This document shows positions 49,778 through 60,099 of a stretch of 60,099 nt of DNA, one piece after another. Origin of the DNA: Candidatus Bipolaricaulota bacterium. Lineage in GTDB: Bacteria; Bipolaricaulota; Bipolaricaulia; UBA7950; UBA9294. Below the pieces are notes generated by a model. It was given only the letters and a program-made list of their open reading frames with translations, searched no databases and was not told the DNA's origin. Made by a program: the position numbers and the translations under genes. The stretch is taken from assembly GCA_026390345.1 (NCBI GenBank), contig JAPLGD010000037.1, positions 1-60,099 of the forward strand, read 5' to 3'. Every line of letters starts with the position of its first letter. Within the stretch, counting starts at the first letter, position 1.

Positions 49778-50923
49778 CTAGAACGGGAACGAGTGCGAGA
49801 CCACGATGCGGTCGAACCCGGTCTTCGAAACCGCCAGCGAGAAGGTGAGGTCGCCCAACTCCGCGGTCGGCTGGCCGATACAGCAGGCAAGATCGAAGCG
49901 AAGCGTAACTTGAGCCGATGGAATGTCGAATTCCATCCCCCCCTCGTACTGGTCGATGATCTCGAACGTCGGGGTCACGTTGATCGACCACGCCTCGAAG
50001 GCGCGCGTCCAGTTGAAGCTCAAGGCCAAGAGCGTGTCGGAGTCGAAGGACGCCGTCGACAGGAGTTGCCCGTCGAGGAACGGCCGACGCATCGAGATGC
50101 TGCCCTGCACGAACGCGTCCTCGTACGCGAACGTCGCGTTGAGAGCGATGTCCCCGACGATTCCGCCGATGCTGAGGGAAGAGCTCTCGTAGGAGAAGAG
50201 GTCCGAGAACCGAGCGTTCGCGCGAAGGGTGAAGCCATCCAAGAGCGGAATCGGCAGCTGCCCGCTCCACGAGACGGTCTCCGAGTCCAGCCCGGTCTGC
50301 CCGAACAGGACGTCCAAGGCCGCCCGCCCCCCGCACAGCTCAAGGTCCGACACGGAGAGCCGCAGGCCGTCGTAGGACGGAATGCAGCTCGCTTCCTCGA
50401 CTTGCCCGTAGGGGGTGGCCCCGAGTCCGAGGATGACAGAGATCCGGGCGAAGCCCTGGATGACCCCGGCGATTCGAATCGTCATCCCTGCGCCGATGGC
50501 GGACACTGTCTGCGTCCCAAGCTCAGTAACCAAGAAAGTCACCGCGTACGCGATCCCCTCGGACCGACCGGACACGGACAGGTCAGCGCGGCTGAACCTG
50601 TCGCCCGTGAACGAGCCGCTGCCCTGAAGCGATAGGTCGCCGAACGGAGCGCTGACTCGGACGCTCTCAGCAAGGAGCCCTTCATTTCCGAAACTGGTTC
50701 GACTCGAAATCGAGAATCGATCGTAGCGGTACGTAACCGCCAGCGACTCGCTCAGCGCGAGCGTCGCGATATCCATGTCCGACATGGACAAGGAGAACGT
50801 GTTGGCCCCGGACAGAGAGACCTGCGCGGCGGACGCGCCGAGGGGAACGAAGACCAGGAAGAGTCCGAGGACGACTCCCAGCCCGAGGCCTTCCTTATTC
50901 CAGCGCAATCTCCCCTTGCCCAT
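49778..50923 (-). CDS. Secreted beta-barrel-like outer-membrane-type protein
   Basis: Signal peptide, ~350 aa of Ser/Gly/Phe-rich alternating strands, C-terminal SHSFPF. Start uncertain (in-frame ATG also at 51010). Confidence 0.65.
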   Translation of the reverse strand: MGKGRLRWNKEGLGLGVVLGLFLVFVPLGASAAQVSLSGANTFSLSMSDMDIATLALSESLAVTYRYDRFSISSRTSFGNEGLLAESVRVSAPFGDLSLQGSGSFTGDRFSRADLSVSGRSEGIAYAVTFLVTELGTQTVSAIGAGMTIRIAGVIQGFARISVILGLGATPYGQVEEASCIPSYDGLRLSVSDLELCGGRAALDVLFGQTGLDSETVSWSGQLPIPLLDGFTLRANARFSDLFSYESSSLSIGGIVGDIALNATFAYEDAFVQGSISMRRPFLDGQLLSTASFDSDTLLALSFNWTRAFEAWSINVTPTFEIIDQYEGGMEFDIPSAQVTLRFDLACCIGQPTAELGDLTFSLAVSKTGFDRIVVSHSFPF

Positions 50924-51557: not shown

Positions 51558-52922
51558 TCACGGGCGGCGCAGTCGCTCCACCGCGCCCCACGCGTCGACA
51601 AGTCCGTTCCCGAAGAGCGCGTCCCGTCCTCGCTGTCCGAGATCCTCGCACGAACTCTCGAGGACAGCGATCGCTTTGTCGGCGGAGAGCTCGGGGGCAA
51701 GCGAGAGAATCAGCGCCAGGATCCCGGACACATGCGGAGCGGCAAACGAGGTCCCGGACTCGGTTGCCGGCCTTCCGCCCGCAGTGAACGCCGTGATCTC
51801 GTCCCCGGGAGCGCAGACGGCGACCTCAGGCCCGCGGTTGCTGAATGCCGCGAGAAGGTCGCCGCGATCCGTCGCCGACACAGCAAGGACACTGCCGTAC
51901 TTGCCGGGGTACATCACCTGGTTCTCGCCGAGGTTTCCGGAGATCCCGACAATGATGACCCCGCGCGCCCGGGCGCTCGAAAGGGCTTGCTCGAAGTAGT
52001 CCGGCGGGCGGGCGTTCGAAAAGATGCTCAGGTTGATGATCCGAGCGCCGTTGTTCACAGCGTACTCGATCGCTCGCACGAAGGTCCTCCAATCCGACGA
52101 CCCAAAACGATTCGAAGAATCAAGGAAGCGGACGTCCATGATCGACACGCCGGGGGCGACGCCGACAATGGGGTACTCGCCGGGACGCGCGGCAATGATT
52201 GACGCCACAAACGTTCCGTGCCCGTGAAGGGGCGTCCCCGTGAGCGAACTCGCATCGTTGTCGCGAAAATCCCATCCGTGCACGTCGTCGACGTAGCCGT
52301 TGTAATCGTCATCGACGCCGTTGCCGGGCACTTCATCGGGATTCGTCCAGAGGCTCGCGGCGACCTGAGGGATGCGGGCGTCGACGCCGGAGTCGATTAC
52401 GGCGACGATCACGGCGGGATTGCCGTGCGAGACAGTCCAGGCCTTCGGTCCCCCGATCCGGACGAGGCCCCAGTTGCTCGGCTGCTGGTACACCGTGTAG
52501 AGGCCCGGACTCGGGGAGGGCGACGGAGCCAGCGGGAGGGCGACGGGGAGGATCTGGAACGGCAGCGTCCCCGACGTCAGGGTCCCGCCCACCTCGAGCG
52601 CGATTTCCAGAAGGTACGCTCCGGCGATCTGGTACTCCCACCGGCTGCTCGCCTCGACGACAACCAGCGCTCCCGCGTCCGCGGAGAACGGACCGACCGG
52701 GACCTGATCGATCCCCTGCCCGGCGTGCCCCATGTCCCGCAGGGTCGCCGTTCCCCGCACGTTCTCCTGTGGGAGCGCCGTGGGATTCGAGAACTGGAAC
52801 GACACGGTGAAGGGGACGAGGTTCACGATCTCGATCTTCTGGATCTGCGCTTCACCGGCGGCCGTCCCGAGAGAGAGAATGGCGAGGACGACGACGATAC
52901 GCAGGACGCGCGGCTTCCTCAT
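51558..52922 (-). CDS. S8 subtilase with N-terminal Ig-like domain
   Basis: Catalytic triad VIDSG / HGTFVA / GTSFAAP; WTNPDEVPGNGVDDD.NGYVDD insertion; signal peptide. Confidence 0.93.
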   Translation of the reverse strand: MRKPRVLRIVVVLAILSLGTAAGEAQIQKIEIVNLVPFTVSFQFSNPTALPQENVRGTATLRDMGHAGQGIDQVPVGPFSADAGALVVVEASSRWEYQIAGAYLLEIALEVGGTLTSGTLPFQILPVALPLAPSPSPSPGLYTVYQQPSNWGLVRIGGPKAWTVSHGNPAVIVAVIDSGVDARIPQVAASLWTNPDEVPGNGVDDDYNGYVDDVHGWDFRDNDASSLTGTPLHGHGTFVASIIAARPGEYPIVGVAPGVSIMDVRFLDSSNRFGSSDWRTFVRAIEYAVNNGARIINLSIFSNARPPDYFEQALSSARARGVIIVGISGNLGENQVMYPGKYGSVLAVSATDRGDLLAAFSNRGPEVAVCAPGDEITAFTAGGRPATESGTSFAAPHVSGILALILSLAPELSADKAIAVLESSCEDLGQRGRDALFGNGLVDAWGAVERLRRP

Positions 52923-54220
52923 CCAGCCCGATCCTCGTCTGCTTCCGCAAACCAGCGGAGAGCCTGATCGAGCGACACCTCCTCCGTCTCTCCCCACCCG
53001 CCCGACCGAATCCGCAGGGTCACGGGGAAGGAGAAGAGCGAGGTCACGTCGGAGGCAAAACGCCGCAGCCGTTCTGCCGCCACCGCCGCCCCGTCCGTCG
53101 GCGTCTCTGGAAGGATGGCCGCCAAACGATACGAGTCGATTCGGAACACCGTGTCGACCCTCCGCAAGCCCGAGACGAAGAAGGTCGACGCTCGCACCAG
53201 CGCGCGCGTTTGGTCTTCCGGCGCCTGGCCTGGCAGGCCTTCGACCTCCAGCACGAGGACCGACGTCGGGTGCTTGTATCGTCGCCCCTTGCTGAGCTCG
53301 ATCTCGAGTTGCTCGCGGAAGTGATCGGCGTTGTACAGTCCCGTGACGTCGTCGAGGACGACGAGCTTCTTCAATTCCTGTTCGTGGGAGTGGATGACCT
53401 TCGTCATCAGGTTGAACCGATCGACCAACTGCGCGACCTCGTCGCGAACGGGCGTCCCGGGAGTCCTGGGCGGCAGCTTGACCTCCACTTCGTAGTCGCG
53501 CATGGCGACCGCGGCCGTCGCCTGGGCCAGTCGGCCGATCGGCCGAGTCACGATGGCGCGCAGCACAAAGAAGAGGCTTCCCCCCAAGAGAAGAAAGCCG
53601 ACCACGGATCCCAGGGCGAACTGCCACGAGAGGCGGCGGTCGTAGGCGGCCATCTCGTCGGTCGACATGTCCACGATGACGACGCCGACGAGGTCGGCCC
53701 CGGAGAGGATCGGCTGGTAGGCGCGCCACGCACGGGTTCCCCGAGCGCGCTCCACGGTCGCTTCATTCCCTTGCATCTGTTCATACCGCGCCCTGACCGT
53801 GTCCGAGGCGAGCTCTCCAACCTTCGTGGGGTCGGTGCTCGCGACCGTCAGGAACCCGCGCGCCGTCGCTCCGATGACCGTGATCTCGATGATGGATTCG
53901 TAGCGCGCAAGGAGTTGGTCGATGTCCGCACTGAGTTCGTTGGAGTAGTAGAGGACGTAGTCCTTCTCCTGGATCGACTTCGAGATGAGGCTCGCCACGC
54001 TCCGGGCCCGCTGCTCGTAGATCGACCCGATCGACGCGTGGAGCGATACGAACGCAAACCAAGAGAGGGCGCCCACGACGGCGCACGCGATCAGGAGGAC
54101 GGGAACGATCAACTTCCACTGCAGGGACGTTCCGTACCGAATCGCGGACCGCATTCGCGCCGGCCGACCGGTGTCCGATCGGTCGTCCTTCCGGGTCTTC
54201 GACTCGATGTTCGTACTCAT
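52919..54220 (-). CDS. Membrane Cache-like/HAMP/degenerate GGDEF protein (probable c-di-GMP receptor)
   Basis: Two TMs, HAMP, DDVTGLYN. I-site RRVD is intact, while the A-site is DSYRL instead of GG(D/E)EF. Confidence 0.8.
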   Translation of the reverse strand: MSTNIESKTRKDDRSDTGRPARMRSAIRYGTSLQWKLIVPVLLIACAVVGALSWFAFVSLHASIGSIYEQRARSVASLISKSIQEKDYVLYYSNELSADIDQLLARYESIIEITVIGATARGFLTVASTDPTKVGELASDTVRARYEQMQGNEATVERARGTRAWRAYQPILSGADLVGVVIVDMSTDEMAAYDRRLSWQFALGSVVGFLLLGGSLFFVLRAIVTRPIGRLAQATAAVAMRDYEVEVKLPPRTPGTPVRDEVAQLVDRFNLMTKVIHSHEQELKKLVVLDDVTGLYNADHFREQLEIELSKGRRYKHPTSVLVLEVEGLPGQAPEDQTRALVRASTFFVSGLRRVDTVFRIDSYRLAAILPETPTDGAAVAAERLRRFASDVTSLFSFPVTLRIRSGGWGETEEVSLDQALRWFAEADEDRAG

Positions 54221-57155: not shown

Positions 57156-57644
57156 TCAGTCGGGCATGATCGTGCAGACGAGGAGGGCTTCTCCGTCCGT
57201 CCCGTCGGAGTTCGCCCCGTCCAGAGCTACTCGCACATCGACGCCGACGTCAAACGTGCCGTTGGAGCCGCTCGAGAGGATGATTGGCTGGTCTCCGAGC
57301 GTCGTGTACCCCCGCCCGTGTTCCCTCACATCCACCGACGGGAGTCTGCTCCGGGAGGAGTTCGCCCAGCGCACCTGAAGGCGCCAGGGCGTGTTGCTGA
57401 CCACACGAAAGCGGAATGCATTCTCGTCTTCGATGTAGCCGCGTGAGCGCTCGAGGGTCGATGCAGGTCGGAAGCTGTACGAGACCGCGGTCACATCCTG
57501 GGACGACCCGGCCAGCCGAAGCGTTTGGTACGGAAGGATTCGCCACCGCACGTCGACGGACACCGACTTCTCTACGGCGTACGCCGCGACGGCGACAAGG
57601 GACAGCGCGAGGATGATCGTCATCCAGGCCCGTCCTCGGCCCAT
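57156..57644 (-). CDS. Secreted beta-rich pilin/fibre-subunit-like protein (162 aa)
   Basis: ATG after GGGAGG; signal peptide; V.V.W.I..YQ.L and F.VVSNTPWRLQV pattern seen in CS1/WxL/spore-coat-U-like subunits. Confidence 0.6.
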   Translation of the reverse strand: MGRGRAWMTIILALSLVAVAAYAVEKSVSVDVRWRILPYQTLRLAGSSQDVTAVSYSFRPASTLERSRGYIEDENAFRFRVVSNTPWRLQVRWANSSRSRLPSVDVREHGRGYTTLGDQPIILSSGSNGTFDVGVDVRVALDGANSDGTDGEALLVCTIMPD

Positions 57645-57708: not shown

Positions 57709-58761
57709 CTACGGGATCTGCAAGACGTGTCGCCGGAGGGCGTCGACGTCGGCCGGCGTGAGGACTCCGTCGTCGTCGAAGTCGAACGCCCGAGCATTGT
57801 CCCGGATGGCCGGGAGATCGAGGGAGATTTCGAAGAGAGCCACGTCGATGTCGTCGACGCCTCCATCCCCGTCGATGTCCTCGAACAGCCCGTCTCCGTT
57901 TGCATCCTGGGGAGGCCTCGAAGAGGTCCCGAGCGGCACGAGGGCGAGCTCTGGAACGCGAAGAACGACCTGCCCTGCGACGAGGTAGTCGCCCCCGAAA
58001 TCGATCACGATTCGGACAAGGAACATCCCCGAATCGAGCAGGCTCCACGGCGCCTCCACAACGGCGTCCACGGAGTATCCCGGGAGGATGGAGAACCGGG
58101 GTAGGGAGGTCTCGGCCAGCGTGGCGCCGCTCGGAGACTGGATCGAGAGCGTCCCTGGGACCTCGGCGAGCCGCGTCTCCCCGCGGTTTGCGACGCTGAA
58201 CTCGACCGTGAGCGGCGAAAGCCCGCGCACAGCGACCCGTGTGACGGCCGCGCCCTGCACGGCCGGGAGGGATGTTACGTAGACCTTGACAAGGAACTCC
58301 CGCGCCACGCGAATTCCGCTCTCTTCCGGCCCGGCGTCGACCGCGCTCACGGCGACGAGGAGTCCCGCCCAGTGCGTTCCCACCGCCCTCGCAGGGACGG
58401 AGACACCGCAAGAGACCTCGACTTCGTCCGCGGGGCGCAGCACGTACGTCAGCGCCGGCAGAGCGAGCCACGGCGCACACGAACGCTCGATGGTTCCAGG
58501 ACGAAAGAGACGGGTCACCCCGTCGGGGTCCTCGTCCCAGTCGCACGACGAGATGTCGACACGAAGGAACGAGTTCTCGTCGTTCTGGATTGTGAAGCGC
58601 ACCTCGAGATTGGATCCCGGGCGAGCGACGAGGGAAAACTCCGACACCGAGACGGTGATCCCCGAAGCCGCTGCGGACACGCCAGCCACGACGGCCAACA
58701 CAAGGCTCCCCCACTCGAGAAGTCTGCGTCCTTTGCTTTCGGCCTCGCGACGAGCGCTCAT
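57709..58761 (-). CDS. PapD/DUF916-like two-Ig-domain secreted protein with C-terminal dockerin-like EF-hand pair
   Basis: Signal peptide; FTIQN..DW..G..SCAPWL..L.P..V.VP; C-terminus QDANGDGLFEDIDGDGGVDDIDV...FDFDDDGVLTPADV. Confidence 0.75.
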   Translation of the reverse strand: MSARREAESKGRRLLEWGSLVLAVVAGVSAAASGITVSVSEFSLVARPGSNLEVRFTIQNDENSFLRVDISSCDWDEDPDGVTRLFRPGTIERSCAPWLALPALTYVLRPADEVEVSCGVSVPARAVGTHWAGLLVAVSAVDAGPEESGIRVAREFLVKVYVTSLPAVQGAAVTRVAVRGLSPLTVEFSVANRGETRLAEVPGTLSIQSPSGATLAETSLPRFSILPGYSVDAVVEAPWSLLDSGMFLVRIVIDFGGDYLVAGQVVLRVPELALVPLGTSSRPPQDANGDGLFEDIDGDGGVDDIDVALFEISLDLPAIRDNARAFDFDDDGVLTPADVDALRRHVLQIP

Positions 58762-58834
58762 GGTTCCCTGTGTAGCGTCCGCGGCCCGCGGAAACAAGAG
58801 CGCGGGATGCCGGGAGATGGCGGAACCCGCGCCA

Positions 58835-60099
58835 TCACGCGGTCGCCACTCGCAGCCTCTCCAGGACGCCGTCCAGCGGCTCCGGGCGACCGATGTGGAA
58901 CCCCGCGCGCAATCGACGCCGATCGACCGCAAGACCTCGAGCGTCTCCTCCGTCTCGACGAACTCCGCGATGGTCCGCTTGCCAAGGCCCTTAGCCAGCT
59001 GAACCATCGCCACGACCAGGTGCCGATCGACCGGGTCGCGCCCGAGGTTGCGGATGAAGCTCCCGTCGATCTTGAGATAGTCCACATCCAGGTTCTTGAG
59101 CTGGTAGAACGAGGAGAACCCCATGCCGAAGTCGTCGAGCGCGAACTCGTACCCTTGCGTCCTGAGGGCGCGGAGGAAGTCCTTGGCCACGTGAATGTTG
59201 TAGATCGCCGCCGTCTCCGTGATCTCGAGCACGAGCCGAACGGGTCCGATGACCGACAGCGACGTTCGGCTCGAGATCGCGGACAAGACGGCGGGGTCGG
59301 TGAGCGACCGCGGCGAGAGGTTCACGGCGAACGAGACGTCGCTTGGCAACTGCTCGTCGTCCAGCGTGTCCATGACCTTCTCTAGGACCCACCGGTCGAT
59401 GTCGCCGCTCAGCCCGAACTGCTCGGCAATGTCAAGAAAAGCGCCGGGGGGAATGATCTCTCCGCTACGTCCGAGGAGGCGAAGGAGGATCTCGTAGCGG
59501 ACGATGCGGTTCTCGGTCAGATCAAGGATCGGTTGTGCGTAGAGGATGAACCCGTCGTTCTCAAGGGCGTCCCGGATCACGCGGAGCCAGTCGACGCGCG
59601 ACTCGGGGTCGTCGACCTTCTCCTCGTCGGGCGAGTAGAGGCAGAACCGGTTGCGCCCTTGGGCCTTCGCCCGGTACATCGCCATGTCGGCCTTCATGAG
59701 GAGCTCGCTCCCGCTCGCTCCGTGATCGGGGAAGAGGACGATCCCGAGGCTTGCCGTCGTTCGGAGCGTTTCCCCGTCGATCACGGCGGTGTGCTTCCGG
59801 ATCGCATCGAGCAACCGTCCCGCTGCAATCTGGGCCTGTCCACTGTCCACGTTCAGGTAGAGGACGGCGAATTCGTCGCCTCCGAGGCGAGCGAGGACGT
59901 CCGAATCCCGAACCGTCGCCCGCATTCGATGGGCGAGGCTCGCCAGGAGATCATCGCCGACCTTGTGGCCCAGCCCGTCGTTGATCTCTTTGAACCCGTC
60001 GAGGTCCATCCACAGGACAGCGCCTTGCCGTTCGTAGCGCCGAGCCTCCGCCAGATGTCGTTCGAGGAGATGCCCGAACTCGCGCCGATTGCAGAGCCC
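58835..60099 (-). CDS. GGDEF-EAL protein (5' end outside window) with a 1-nt deletion near the 3' end
   Basis: RDSD..ARLGGDEF, YEILLRL, LEITE, LDDFG, KIDGSF, IAEFVE. DCARGS should read DCAQGFHIGRP; frameshift at ~58904-58905; native stop TGA at 58837-58835. Confidence 0.88.

Follow-up and report, generated by a model that had tools for sequence, protein, structure and literature searches.

Here we describe a minus-strand gene cluster in a contig of a Candidatus Bipolaricaulota bacterium (JAPLGD010000037.1 of assembly GCA_026390345.1, positions 1 to 60,099; this whole stretch of 60,099 nucleotides is hereafter the window), centered on a membrane receptor with a degenerate GGDEF domain that we tentatively propose to be a catalytically dead transmembrane receptor for cyclic di-GMP (c-di-GMP), putative as judged from its sequence. 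Five genes follow one another head to tail on this strand, encoding a membrane-tethered protein that joins a beta-helix to a substrate-binding protein (SBP) domain, the receptor, an S8 subtilase, a small transmembrane (TM)/coiled-coil protein and a signal-peptide protein (Table 1). The beta-helix stop and the receptor start are separated by 22 nucleotides (nt), and the receptor TGA (52919-52921) overlaps the subtilase ATG (52920-52922) as ATGA, such that the overlap described in the initial annotation is confirmed at 52919-52922. A pattern scan for promoters and terminators across 49-59 kb found no intergenic terminator between the beta-helix, receptor and subtilase genes and nothing else useful. 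Further upstream lies a soluble PAS-GGDEF-EAL enzyme with intact GGDEF, RDSD I-site and EAL motifs (full-length orthologues, 556-581 aa), which adds a c-di-GMP context that the initial annotation had not drawn upon.

Table 1. Coordinates of the receptor, its domains and motifs, and the neighboring genes in the window.
Feature	Position	Strand	Basis
Receptor, 433 aa	52919..54220	(-)	Pfam, NCBIfam, AlphaFold2 model, Foldseek
Extracytoplasmic sensor domain, residues 60-197	53630..54043	(-)	Family alignments, weak Cache_WalK match
HAMP domain with extended connector, motif R-x-PGT-x-x-RDE	53399..53563	(-)	Pfam and alignment
I-site RxxD, R353-R-V-D356 (RRVD)	53153..53164	(-)	Family conservation, alignment to c-di-GMP-bound GGDEF structures
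Former GG(D/E)EF pentad DSYRL, residues 362-366	53123..53137	(-)	119-cluster comparison
R384 in motif ERLR, 31 residues past R353	53069..53071	(-)	Invariant in 119/119, aligned with AERIR of solved GGDEF domains
Membrane-tethered beta-helix/SBP protein, 807 aa	54243..56666	(-)	Pfam, synteny
S8 subtilase, 454 aa	51558..52922	(-)	Pfam, alignments, AlphaFold2 model, PDB/Foldseek
S8 triad Asp, D177	52392-52394	(-)	Alignment
S8 triad His, H235	52218-52220	(-)	Alignment
S8 triad Ser, S392	51747-51749	(-)	Alignment
S8 oxyanion Asn, N330	51933-51935	(-)	Alignment
Soluble PAS-GGDEF-EAL gene, 3' part, running off the window end	58835..60099	(-)	Pfam, full-length orthologues
TM-anchored dockerin-like protein, 350 aa, two beta-sandwich domains	57709..58761	(-)	Pfam, tblastn
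Secreted protein, 162 aa, accompanying the dockerin-like gene	57156..57644	(-)	tblastn synteny
TM/coiled-coil protein, 121 aa	51095..51460	(-)	
Signal-peptide protein, 381 aa, no family match	49778..50923	(-)	

Receptor architecture and I-site conservation

The receptor is laid out as TM1 (residues 36-59), a WalK-like alpha/beta sensor (60-197), TM2 (199-222), HAMP (220-274) and a degenerate GGDEF fold (285-433). Pfam recognized the GGDEF domain (PF00990, residues 289-395, E 1.9e-9, 38 bits against a cut-off of 23.8) and HAMP (residues 220-274, E 4.9e-6, 27.2 bits against a cut-off of 25) and detected no HisKA/HATPase kinase domains, and the top NCBIfam match was the N-terminal half of WalK (residues 32-283, E 3.3e-15), which spanned WalK positions 4-257 only and reached 55.7 bits where the family cut-off is 725. 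An AlphaFold2 model from 27 homologues (predicted local distance difference test, pLDDT, 75) contained TM1, a long helix, the alpha/beta sensor (94-186), TM2 continuing into HAMP, and the GGDEF fold (298-426). Searching with this model, Foldseek ranked WalK first (9a5d_A, E 8e-13) and matched the GGDEF fold to GcbC (5euh, root-mean-square deviation [rmsd] 3.0, TMt 0.71), with GcbC, WspR and PleD GGDEF domains together falling at rmsd ~3 Å and TMt 0.64-0.71; the fold also superposed on the c-di-GMP-bound domains 5euh, 3ign and 3i5b (rmsd ~3 Å), and the PelD structures 4eu0 and 4etz were among its matches (PelD at rank 40).

The catalytic site of this GGDEF fold is destroyed, as the initial annotation had claimed for a HAMP-GGDEF receptor and as a profile alignment bears out. 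The pentad reads DSYRL, and the segment that carries the DxD, FK, ND and GH residues in active cyclases is replaced by LEVEGLPGQAPED, which is four residues shorter and holds none of them, such that the pentad, the metal-binding DxD and the guanine/phosphate residues, and thus all GTP and metal residues, are lost. The features expected of an I-site receptor are present, with RRVD followed by TVFRI and then DSYRL, which places RxxD five residues before the pentad, and with a second Arg about 30 residues downstream, R384, which we take, judging by its spacing, to stand where PleD has R390, its second I-site arginine. Aligning a profile of 27 homologues with solved GGDEF domains (6d9m, 3ign, 5euh) set RNVD under REVD and 'igelr' under YGGDEF, and from this alignment we interpret the receptor as a dead cyclase with its I-site in canonical register rather than as the bearer of a chance motif. 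Given the destroyed active site, public records that name this receptor family 'diguanylate cyclase' misstate its function, an error that is usual for proteins with a degenerate GGDEF.

Conservation was evaluated across 119 homologue clusters covering the I-site/pentad region. RxVD, R360 and R384 were invariant in all 119 cluster representatives and in 38 of 38 genomic locus copies, while pentad positions 1-3 carried 55 different tripeptides and position 5 was F, L or M. With only ~19% of the columns in the GGDEF domain invariant, chance is an unlikely reason for all three I-site positions to be fixed, and we interpret the constancy of R353, D356 and R384 beside a drifting pentad as selection that has kept the allosteric c-di-GMP site and let the catalytic one drift. 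Over 100 natural variants thus directly display both the decay of the active site and the strict retention of the I-site. The initial annotation had singled out an intact RxxD (RRVD-TVFRI) with the DSYRL pentad as the signature of effectors such as PelD and PopA; both motifs and their spacing were recovered (RRVD at residues 353-356), the conservation on which that view depended held throughout, and by sequence criteria the receptor belongs to this I-site-only kind of GGDEF receptor.

Within the dead active site, R365-L366 (53123-53128) marks a further change. At pentad position 4, where GG(D/E)EF has its metal-binding Glu, the family has a near-invariant Arg (117/119 clusters), which is a gained constraint.

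These conserved positions also bear on whether the receptor senses nucleotides at all. We give only a small probability to its being a pseudoenzyme scaffold, in which the degenerate GGDEF would be a dimerization or structural module only, RxVD, R360, R365 and R384 would be kept for folding or protein contacts, and the beta-helix/SBP protein and the protease would be organized at the membrane. Structure alignments show that GGDEF folds commonly conserve both the ERLR helix and the Arg that precedes the pentad, and the new, near-invariant R365 implies that selection was not simply retention of an old I-site. However, the exact RxxD register and second Arg persist in every cluster while neighboring positions drift, a c-di-GMP-metabolizing enzyme is a conserved neighbor, and PelD and PopA, whose GGDEF domains are degenerate with an intact RxxD, bind c-di-GMP at that motif.

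Envelope partners and gene order

The beta-helix protein comprises a signal anchor (residues 13-33), a NosD/CASH right-handed beta-helix (~40-520; Pfam Beta_helix 2.2e-40, NosD 1.4e-37) and a C-terminal OpuAC substrate-binding domain (~565-800; E 8.8e-11, full profile covered) that is found in orthologues too. The anchor has no cleavage motif and the helix begins ~10 residues past the TM segment, and this combination of signal anchor and short tether fits a periplasmic protein and not a surface adhesin. The initial annotation's 'adhesin-like beta-helix' was therefore right about the beta-helix, but 'adhesin-like' does not suit it well, and the adhesin reading was rejected in view of the anchor, the tether and the OpuAC domain. 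Membership in NosD was also rejected, since TIGR04247 scored 86.6 bits against 300 and only the beta-helix repeat is in common, and no nos genes (nosDFY/nosZ context) were found in the neighborhood of the cluster. Between lineages the beta-helix protein is 31-37% identical versus 55-62% for the receptor or the subtilase, which indicates faster evolution.

The subtilase consists of a signal peptide (1-24), a family-specific beta-sandwich N-domain (25-125), a conserved P-x-x-LPLAP linker directly after it (126-144) and a catalytic domain (145-454; Pfam Peptidase_S8, E 2.1e-46). The full triad claimed in the initial annotation is confirmed, with D177, H235 and S392, together with N330, invariant in two ortholog alignments (16 and 30 sequences). 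The catalytic domain is of the ordinary subtilisin/thermitase/deseasin type, with deseasin MCP-01 and thermitase as best PDB/Foldseek matches, and assignment as a mycosin (the subtilase of type VII secretion, TIGR03921) was rejected at 186.9 bits against a cut-off of 278.75, the protein ending with its catalytic domain and having no C-terminal anchor. In the AlphaFold2 model (pLDDT 80, pTM 0.79; N-domain pLDDT > 90), residues 25-125 form a seven-strand beta-sandwich of ~100 residues where an I9 propeptide would sit, and Pfam matched no I9-type inhibitor propeptide N-terminal of residue 170; this sandwich and the linker behind it set the protein apart from ordinary subtilases. From the two-TM sensor, the signal anchor and the signal peptide, the receptor, the beta-helix protein and the subtilase are predicted to face the same extracytoplasmic compartment.

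Homology links the subtilase N-domain (52548-52850) and domain two of the dockerin-like protein at 57709-58761, with cross-lineage tblastn E-values of 2e-12 to 4e-13; the homology is visible only across lineages, as BLASTP between the two proteins of the window gave a non-significant E of 0.084. On the strength of these homologous beta-sandwich domains, the subtilase and the dockerin-like protein may bind the same partner.

To place this cluster in its phylum, we assessed synteny at 39 Bipolaricaulota genome loci and, as a reverse test, scanned metagenomes with an S8 profile. The conserved order runs from the PAS-GGDEF-EAL enzyme, through sometimes two small secreted proteins, to the beta-helix protein, the receptor and the subtilase. 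Wherever a locus extended far enough to hold it, a beta-helix gene preceded the receptor, and the subtilase stood directly downstream in 29 of the 39; in the reverse direction, all 19 full-length metagenomic S8 orthologues having upstream sequence (19/19) were preceded by the receptor, such that the receptor-protease co-occurrence on which the initial proposal turned was found from both sides. Every N-domain-bearing S8 orthologue had the receptor directly upstream and none was found away from it, whereas S8 paralogues without the N-domain (catalytic domains 55-62% identical) lay elsewhere and never beside the receptor. The receptor is translationally coupled to the subtilase, and the ATGA overlap recurred in at least 23 of 46 loci, with remaining gaps of at most 53 nt (locus L055 was left out of these statistics for an artefactual coordinate). 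The PAS-GGDEF-EAL gene was syntenic upstream in at least 19 loci (73-95% identity), directly preceding either the beta-helix gene or the dockerin-like and 162-aa genes.

Such gene order might arise among functionally unrelated neighbors, the subtilase being a nutritional extracellular protease and the arrangement inherited synteny within one phylum, which we consider very improbable. The AAA_33, glutaredoxin, ArsR, OsmC, DRTGG and two-component genes downstream are themselves collinear across the phylum, the catalytic domain is of an ordinary type, and a closed Bipolaricaulota genome is reported to have only one extracellular protease and a dependence on amino acids (PMC6092417). Because unrelated genes are also collinear, raw adjacency is weaker evidence than the stop/start overlap, the duplication of the beta-helix/receptor pair described below and the exclusivity of the N-domain subtilase. 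Three observations argue against unrelated neighbors: the overlap or a short gap joins receptor and protease throughout, the close paralogue without an N-domain is the one that sits elsewhere, and the N-domain is related to a domain of another cluster protein.

Receptors without a subtilase are followed by unrelated convergent genes, and all form a single paralogue clade nested in the subtilase-linked tree, with at least 4 genomes carrying both an S8-less and an S8-linked copy. Given this nesting and the genomes that hold both copies, we interpret the beta-helix and receptor genes to have been duplicated as a unit, without the subtilase, into other contexts. As they were duplicated together, this pair forms the core of the module, and the beta-helix/SBP protein, not the subtilase, is the obligatory and tightest partner of the receptor. 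We also sought an S8-docking signature in sensor residues that switch in the S8-less paralogues and rejected it, as the alignment showed every conserved sensor residue to be kept and only L60M and V126I to differ.

Relation to known systems and direction of signaling

Taken with its neighbors, the receptor suggests that c-di-GMP may regulate processes at the envelope of Bipolaricaulota cells. In the model that we favor, with reservation, c-di-GMP made or degraded by the neighboring PAS-GGDEF-EAL enzyme would bind the I-site of a dimeric receptor, HAMP would couple I-site occupancy to the conformation of the extracytoplasmic domain, and the receptor would thereby control the activity of its two envelope partners or integrate it with an external cue. 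The most likely output would be a subtilase either held or inhibited at the membrane or free to cut the beta-helix/SBP protein or other envelope proteins. The HAMP connector (residues 249-262, 53435-53476) is unusually long and modeled at low confidence; it carries the conserved motif R-x-PGT-x-x-RDE, with R252, P254, G255 and E261 invariant in the family alignment, and could be a candidate docking site on the cytoplasmic face.

The logic of this favored model would resemble that of LapD/LapG in Pseudomonas fluorescens, built from unrelated parts. The likenesses include a two-TM receptor with a periplasmic domain, HAMP and degenerate GGDEF, an adjoining gene for a protease with a signal peptide, c-di-GMP enzymes nearby and, in some Bipolaricaulota relatives, giant adhesin genes that flank the cluster. 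The parts themselves differ, in that LapD binds c-di-GMP through a degenerate EAL domain whereas the Bipolaricaulota receptor stops after its GGDEF fold at residue 433, the LapD_MoxY_N periplasmic domain with its LapG-binding Trp loop has no Pfam match in the receptor, LapG is a BTLCP cysteine protease and the adjacent protease here is an S8, and LapG acts on an RTX adhesin of the outer membrane that is exported by type I secretion, whereas the operon encodes no such adhesin. Membership in LapD was accordingly rejected (NCBIfam 21.8 bits, where the family cut-off is 1020). The LapD/LapG-like reading of the initial annotation is thus partly supported, by the receptor-protease co-occurrence and the kept I-site, and is weakened by, among other points, the absence of the LapD periplasmic domain, the EAL domain and LapG.

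In several other Bipolaricaulota genomes, giant repeat proteins lie beside the cluster (L041:669-7181, L125:1-3337, L124:65-6112), with lengths of 2170 aa and >2280 aa (Cadherin/Big_9) and 2015 aa (PKD). Should the module govern surface attachment, its actual adhesins could be among these; the window ends before the equivalent position.

Other relatives of parts of the receptor were weighed in the same way. With PelD and PopA it shares the loss of GG(D/E)EF, the kept RxxD and downstream Arg and, for PelD (4eu0, 4etz), the fold. PelD combines four TM helices with a GAF domain and belongs to the pel polysaccharide operon, and PopA is a soluble Rec-Rec-GGDEF protein; to our knowledge, neither has an extracytoplasmic sensor, HAMP or a protease partner. 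Membership in the PelD family was rejected because the receptor lacks a feature that defines it. WalK with YycH/YycI (Bacillus/Staphylococcus) is the top match, by sequence as well as by structure, over TM1, sensor, TM2 and HAMP, and WalK is likewise controlled by N-terminally anchored extracytoplasmic accessory proteins from its own operon; the receptor differs in having no HisKA/HATPase and a dead GGDEF as output, its beta-helix accessory protein is unrelated to YycH/YycI, and WalK membership was rejected for want of a kinase core and for the score given above. Sensor-HAMP-GGDEF diguanylate cyclases of the YfiN/DgcN type have the same architecture and length, the difference being the receptor's destroyed active site.

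A rebuilt version of Lap logic is already known from DvhD/DvhG of Desulfovibrio vulgaris, where a different receptor combines dCache, PAS and HD-GYP (PMC13090378). DvhD resembles the present receptor in its Cache-type periplasmic domain and its non-EAL c-di-GMP-binding cytoplasmic domain (PMC13090378), and differs in that the DvhG protease is still LapG-like, where the Bipolaricaulota set joins an sCache/WalK-like sensor, HAMP, an I-site GGDEF and a subtilase, and adds the obligatory beta-helix/SBP partner. Together LapD/LapG and the recently described DvhD/DvhG establish that Lap-like logic exists and can be rebuilt with other receptor parts (PMC13090378). Our literature searches found no precedent for a subtilase/GGDEF-receptor pairing nor for c-di-GMP signaling in Bipolaricaulota.

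Lap-like proteolytic control is the part of the receptor/subtilase story that we infer. Its most specific form, which we consider improbable, is a phylum-wide inside-out or bidirectional switch driven by an I-site-only GGDEF in place of an EAL or HD-GYP domain, in which the HAMP/WalK-like sensor would gate a periplasmic subtilase via its N-terminal beta-sandwich, and the protease would release or process the beta-helix/OpuAC protein or giant adhesins. If true, Lap logic would have arisen independently for a third time, and for the first time with a serine protease.

The family from which the receptor descends bears on the direction of signaling. An exhaustive profile search of 1.84 billion representatives returned only 10 with E < 1e-30, which marks the receptor family as compact, and all 120 listed homologues with a source name came from Bipolaricaulota (Acetothermia), at 53-95% identity and ~432 aa. 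Closest to the family are P0243 and P0244 (~305-311 bits), in which GGDEF and RxxD are intact and substrate residues are altered, and the next tier (~105-127 bits), from other phyla, are canonical active HAMP-GGDEF cyclases that share with the receptor family the sensor motif (A/S)S(S/T)DPxL(V/I)G. From these active cyclases with the same sensor motif it follows that the sensor-HAMP part was ancestrally an input module of cyclases. The sensor of the receptor family gives a weak Pfam match to Cache_WalK (PF17203 is recorded in some homologues), and 28 of its residues are invariant in 36/36 aligned receptors, including YYS and ASTDPxxVG motifs described as pocket-like.

These observations lend themselves to an outside-in sensor, the main rival of the favored model and a reading that we regard as possible though on balance unlikely. 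Here the WalK-like domain would detect either a ligand from outside, which might be produced or unmasked by the subtilase, or the state of its tethered co-sensor, the beta-helix/OpuAC protein, and HAMP would signal to the dead GGDEF as a c-di-GMP-gated adaptor, such that the module sets rather than reads c-di-GMP levels; the adaptor might work by docking on the PAS-GGDEF-EAL enzyme, by sequestering it, or by serving as a sink for c-di-GMP. Beyond the active cyclases with shared sensor motifs, this reading draws on the match of the N-terminal half to WalK, a kinase set by membrane-anchored accessory proteins, on the complete OpuAC domain of the partner, as in SBP-dependent sensors, on a sensor as rich in invariant residues (20% of positions) as HAMP and GGDEF (19% each), YYS and STDP among them, and on the retention of all conserved sensor residues in S8-less paralogues. 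However, a dead GGDEF has no known enzymatic output, strict I-site retention with complete loss of the active site is the signature of receptors and not of signal generators, and the adaptor role toward the PAS-GGDEF-EAL protein is purely hypothetical.

Several observations weigh against the favored model of I-site control of envelope partners and in particular against its protease output. As S8-less paralogues keep the conserved sensor residues, the surface that these form is not specific to S8; the top 50 Foldseek matches of the receptor did not include the LapD periplasmic domain; and the collinearity of unrelated downstream genes inflates the counts of synteny. Moreover, with the same sensor-HAMP part serving as the input module of active cyclases elsewhere, signaling probably ran outside-in ancestrally, and the two directions, outside-in and LapD-like inside-out, are equally plausible. 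Bipolaricaulota also have an unsettled envelope type, with a Thermotoga-like simple diderm suggested (PMC6092417).

A sister-family locus (L126:2571-6756) hints at a wider receptor-protease theme from a single contig, in that the GGDEF-intact relative P0243 is directly preceded by a secreted 533-aa metzincin-motif protein (HELGHNLGLDH), with a Trypsin_2 protease further upstream and the contig ending right after the receptor relative. The upstream protein showed no similarity to the beta-helix protein, and no proteases were seen in the neighborhoods of distant active-cyclase relatives, which lay on contigs too short.

The receptor is thus locked in a conserved four-component module of a c-di-GMP enzyme, a tethered beta-helix/binding-protein fusion, a receptor and a subtilase, which offers a testable entry point to second-messenger control of the envelope in the globally distributed Bipolaricaulota. 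These organisms are known mainly as metagenome-assembled genomes, and our literature searches turned up no culture-based work on them. If the receptor gates the protease, c-di-GMP control of periplasmic proteolysis would have evolved repeatedly from unrelated parts, and if signaling runs outside-in, the receptor would exemplify a dead cyclase as a regulated adaptor; either outcome would aid the annotation of other catalytically dead GGDEF proteins like it.

Remaining genes of the cluster

The window copy of the PAS-GGDEF-EAL gene differs from its close relatives L001 and L003 by a 1-nt deletion between 58904 and 58905 (GCGC-GGGG versus GCGCAGGGG). This deletion frameshifts the last ~25 EAL residues (conserved ...GVDCAQGFHIGRP... 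end) and joins the reading frame to the next gene as a 766-aa open reading frame at 57709-60009, and reflects either a mistake in the assembly or a genuine mutation that inactivates the c-di-GMP enzyme.

The dockerin-like gene is present at about a third of loci; Dockerin_1 matched the window copy at 3.4e-4, below the curated cut-off, and a Dockerin_1 match is recorded for the L125 orthologue. The accompanying 162-aa protein had no family match in a Pfam search. Small secreted beta-rich proteins of ~150-160 aa without a family match lie beside the cluster both in the window (57156-57644 (-)) and in L001 (245-706 (-)), and may be the 'pilin-like' proteins of the initial annotation, although they carry no type IV pilin signature.

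The 381-aa protein ends in ...SHSFPF, as outer-membrane beta-barrels often do, and this barrel-like protein and an OEP/TolC gene in L039 agree with the suggestion of a simple diderm. Its gene and that of the 121-aa protein are inserted between the subtilase and AAA_33 genes only in the close relatives of the window (L001-L003, partly L055).

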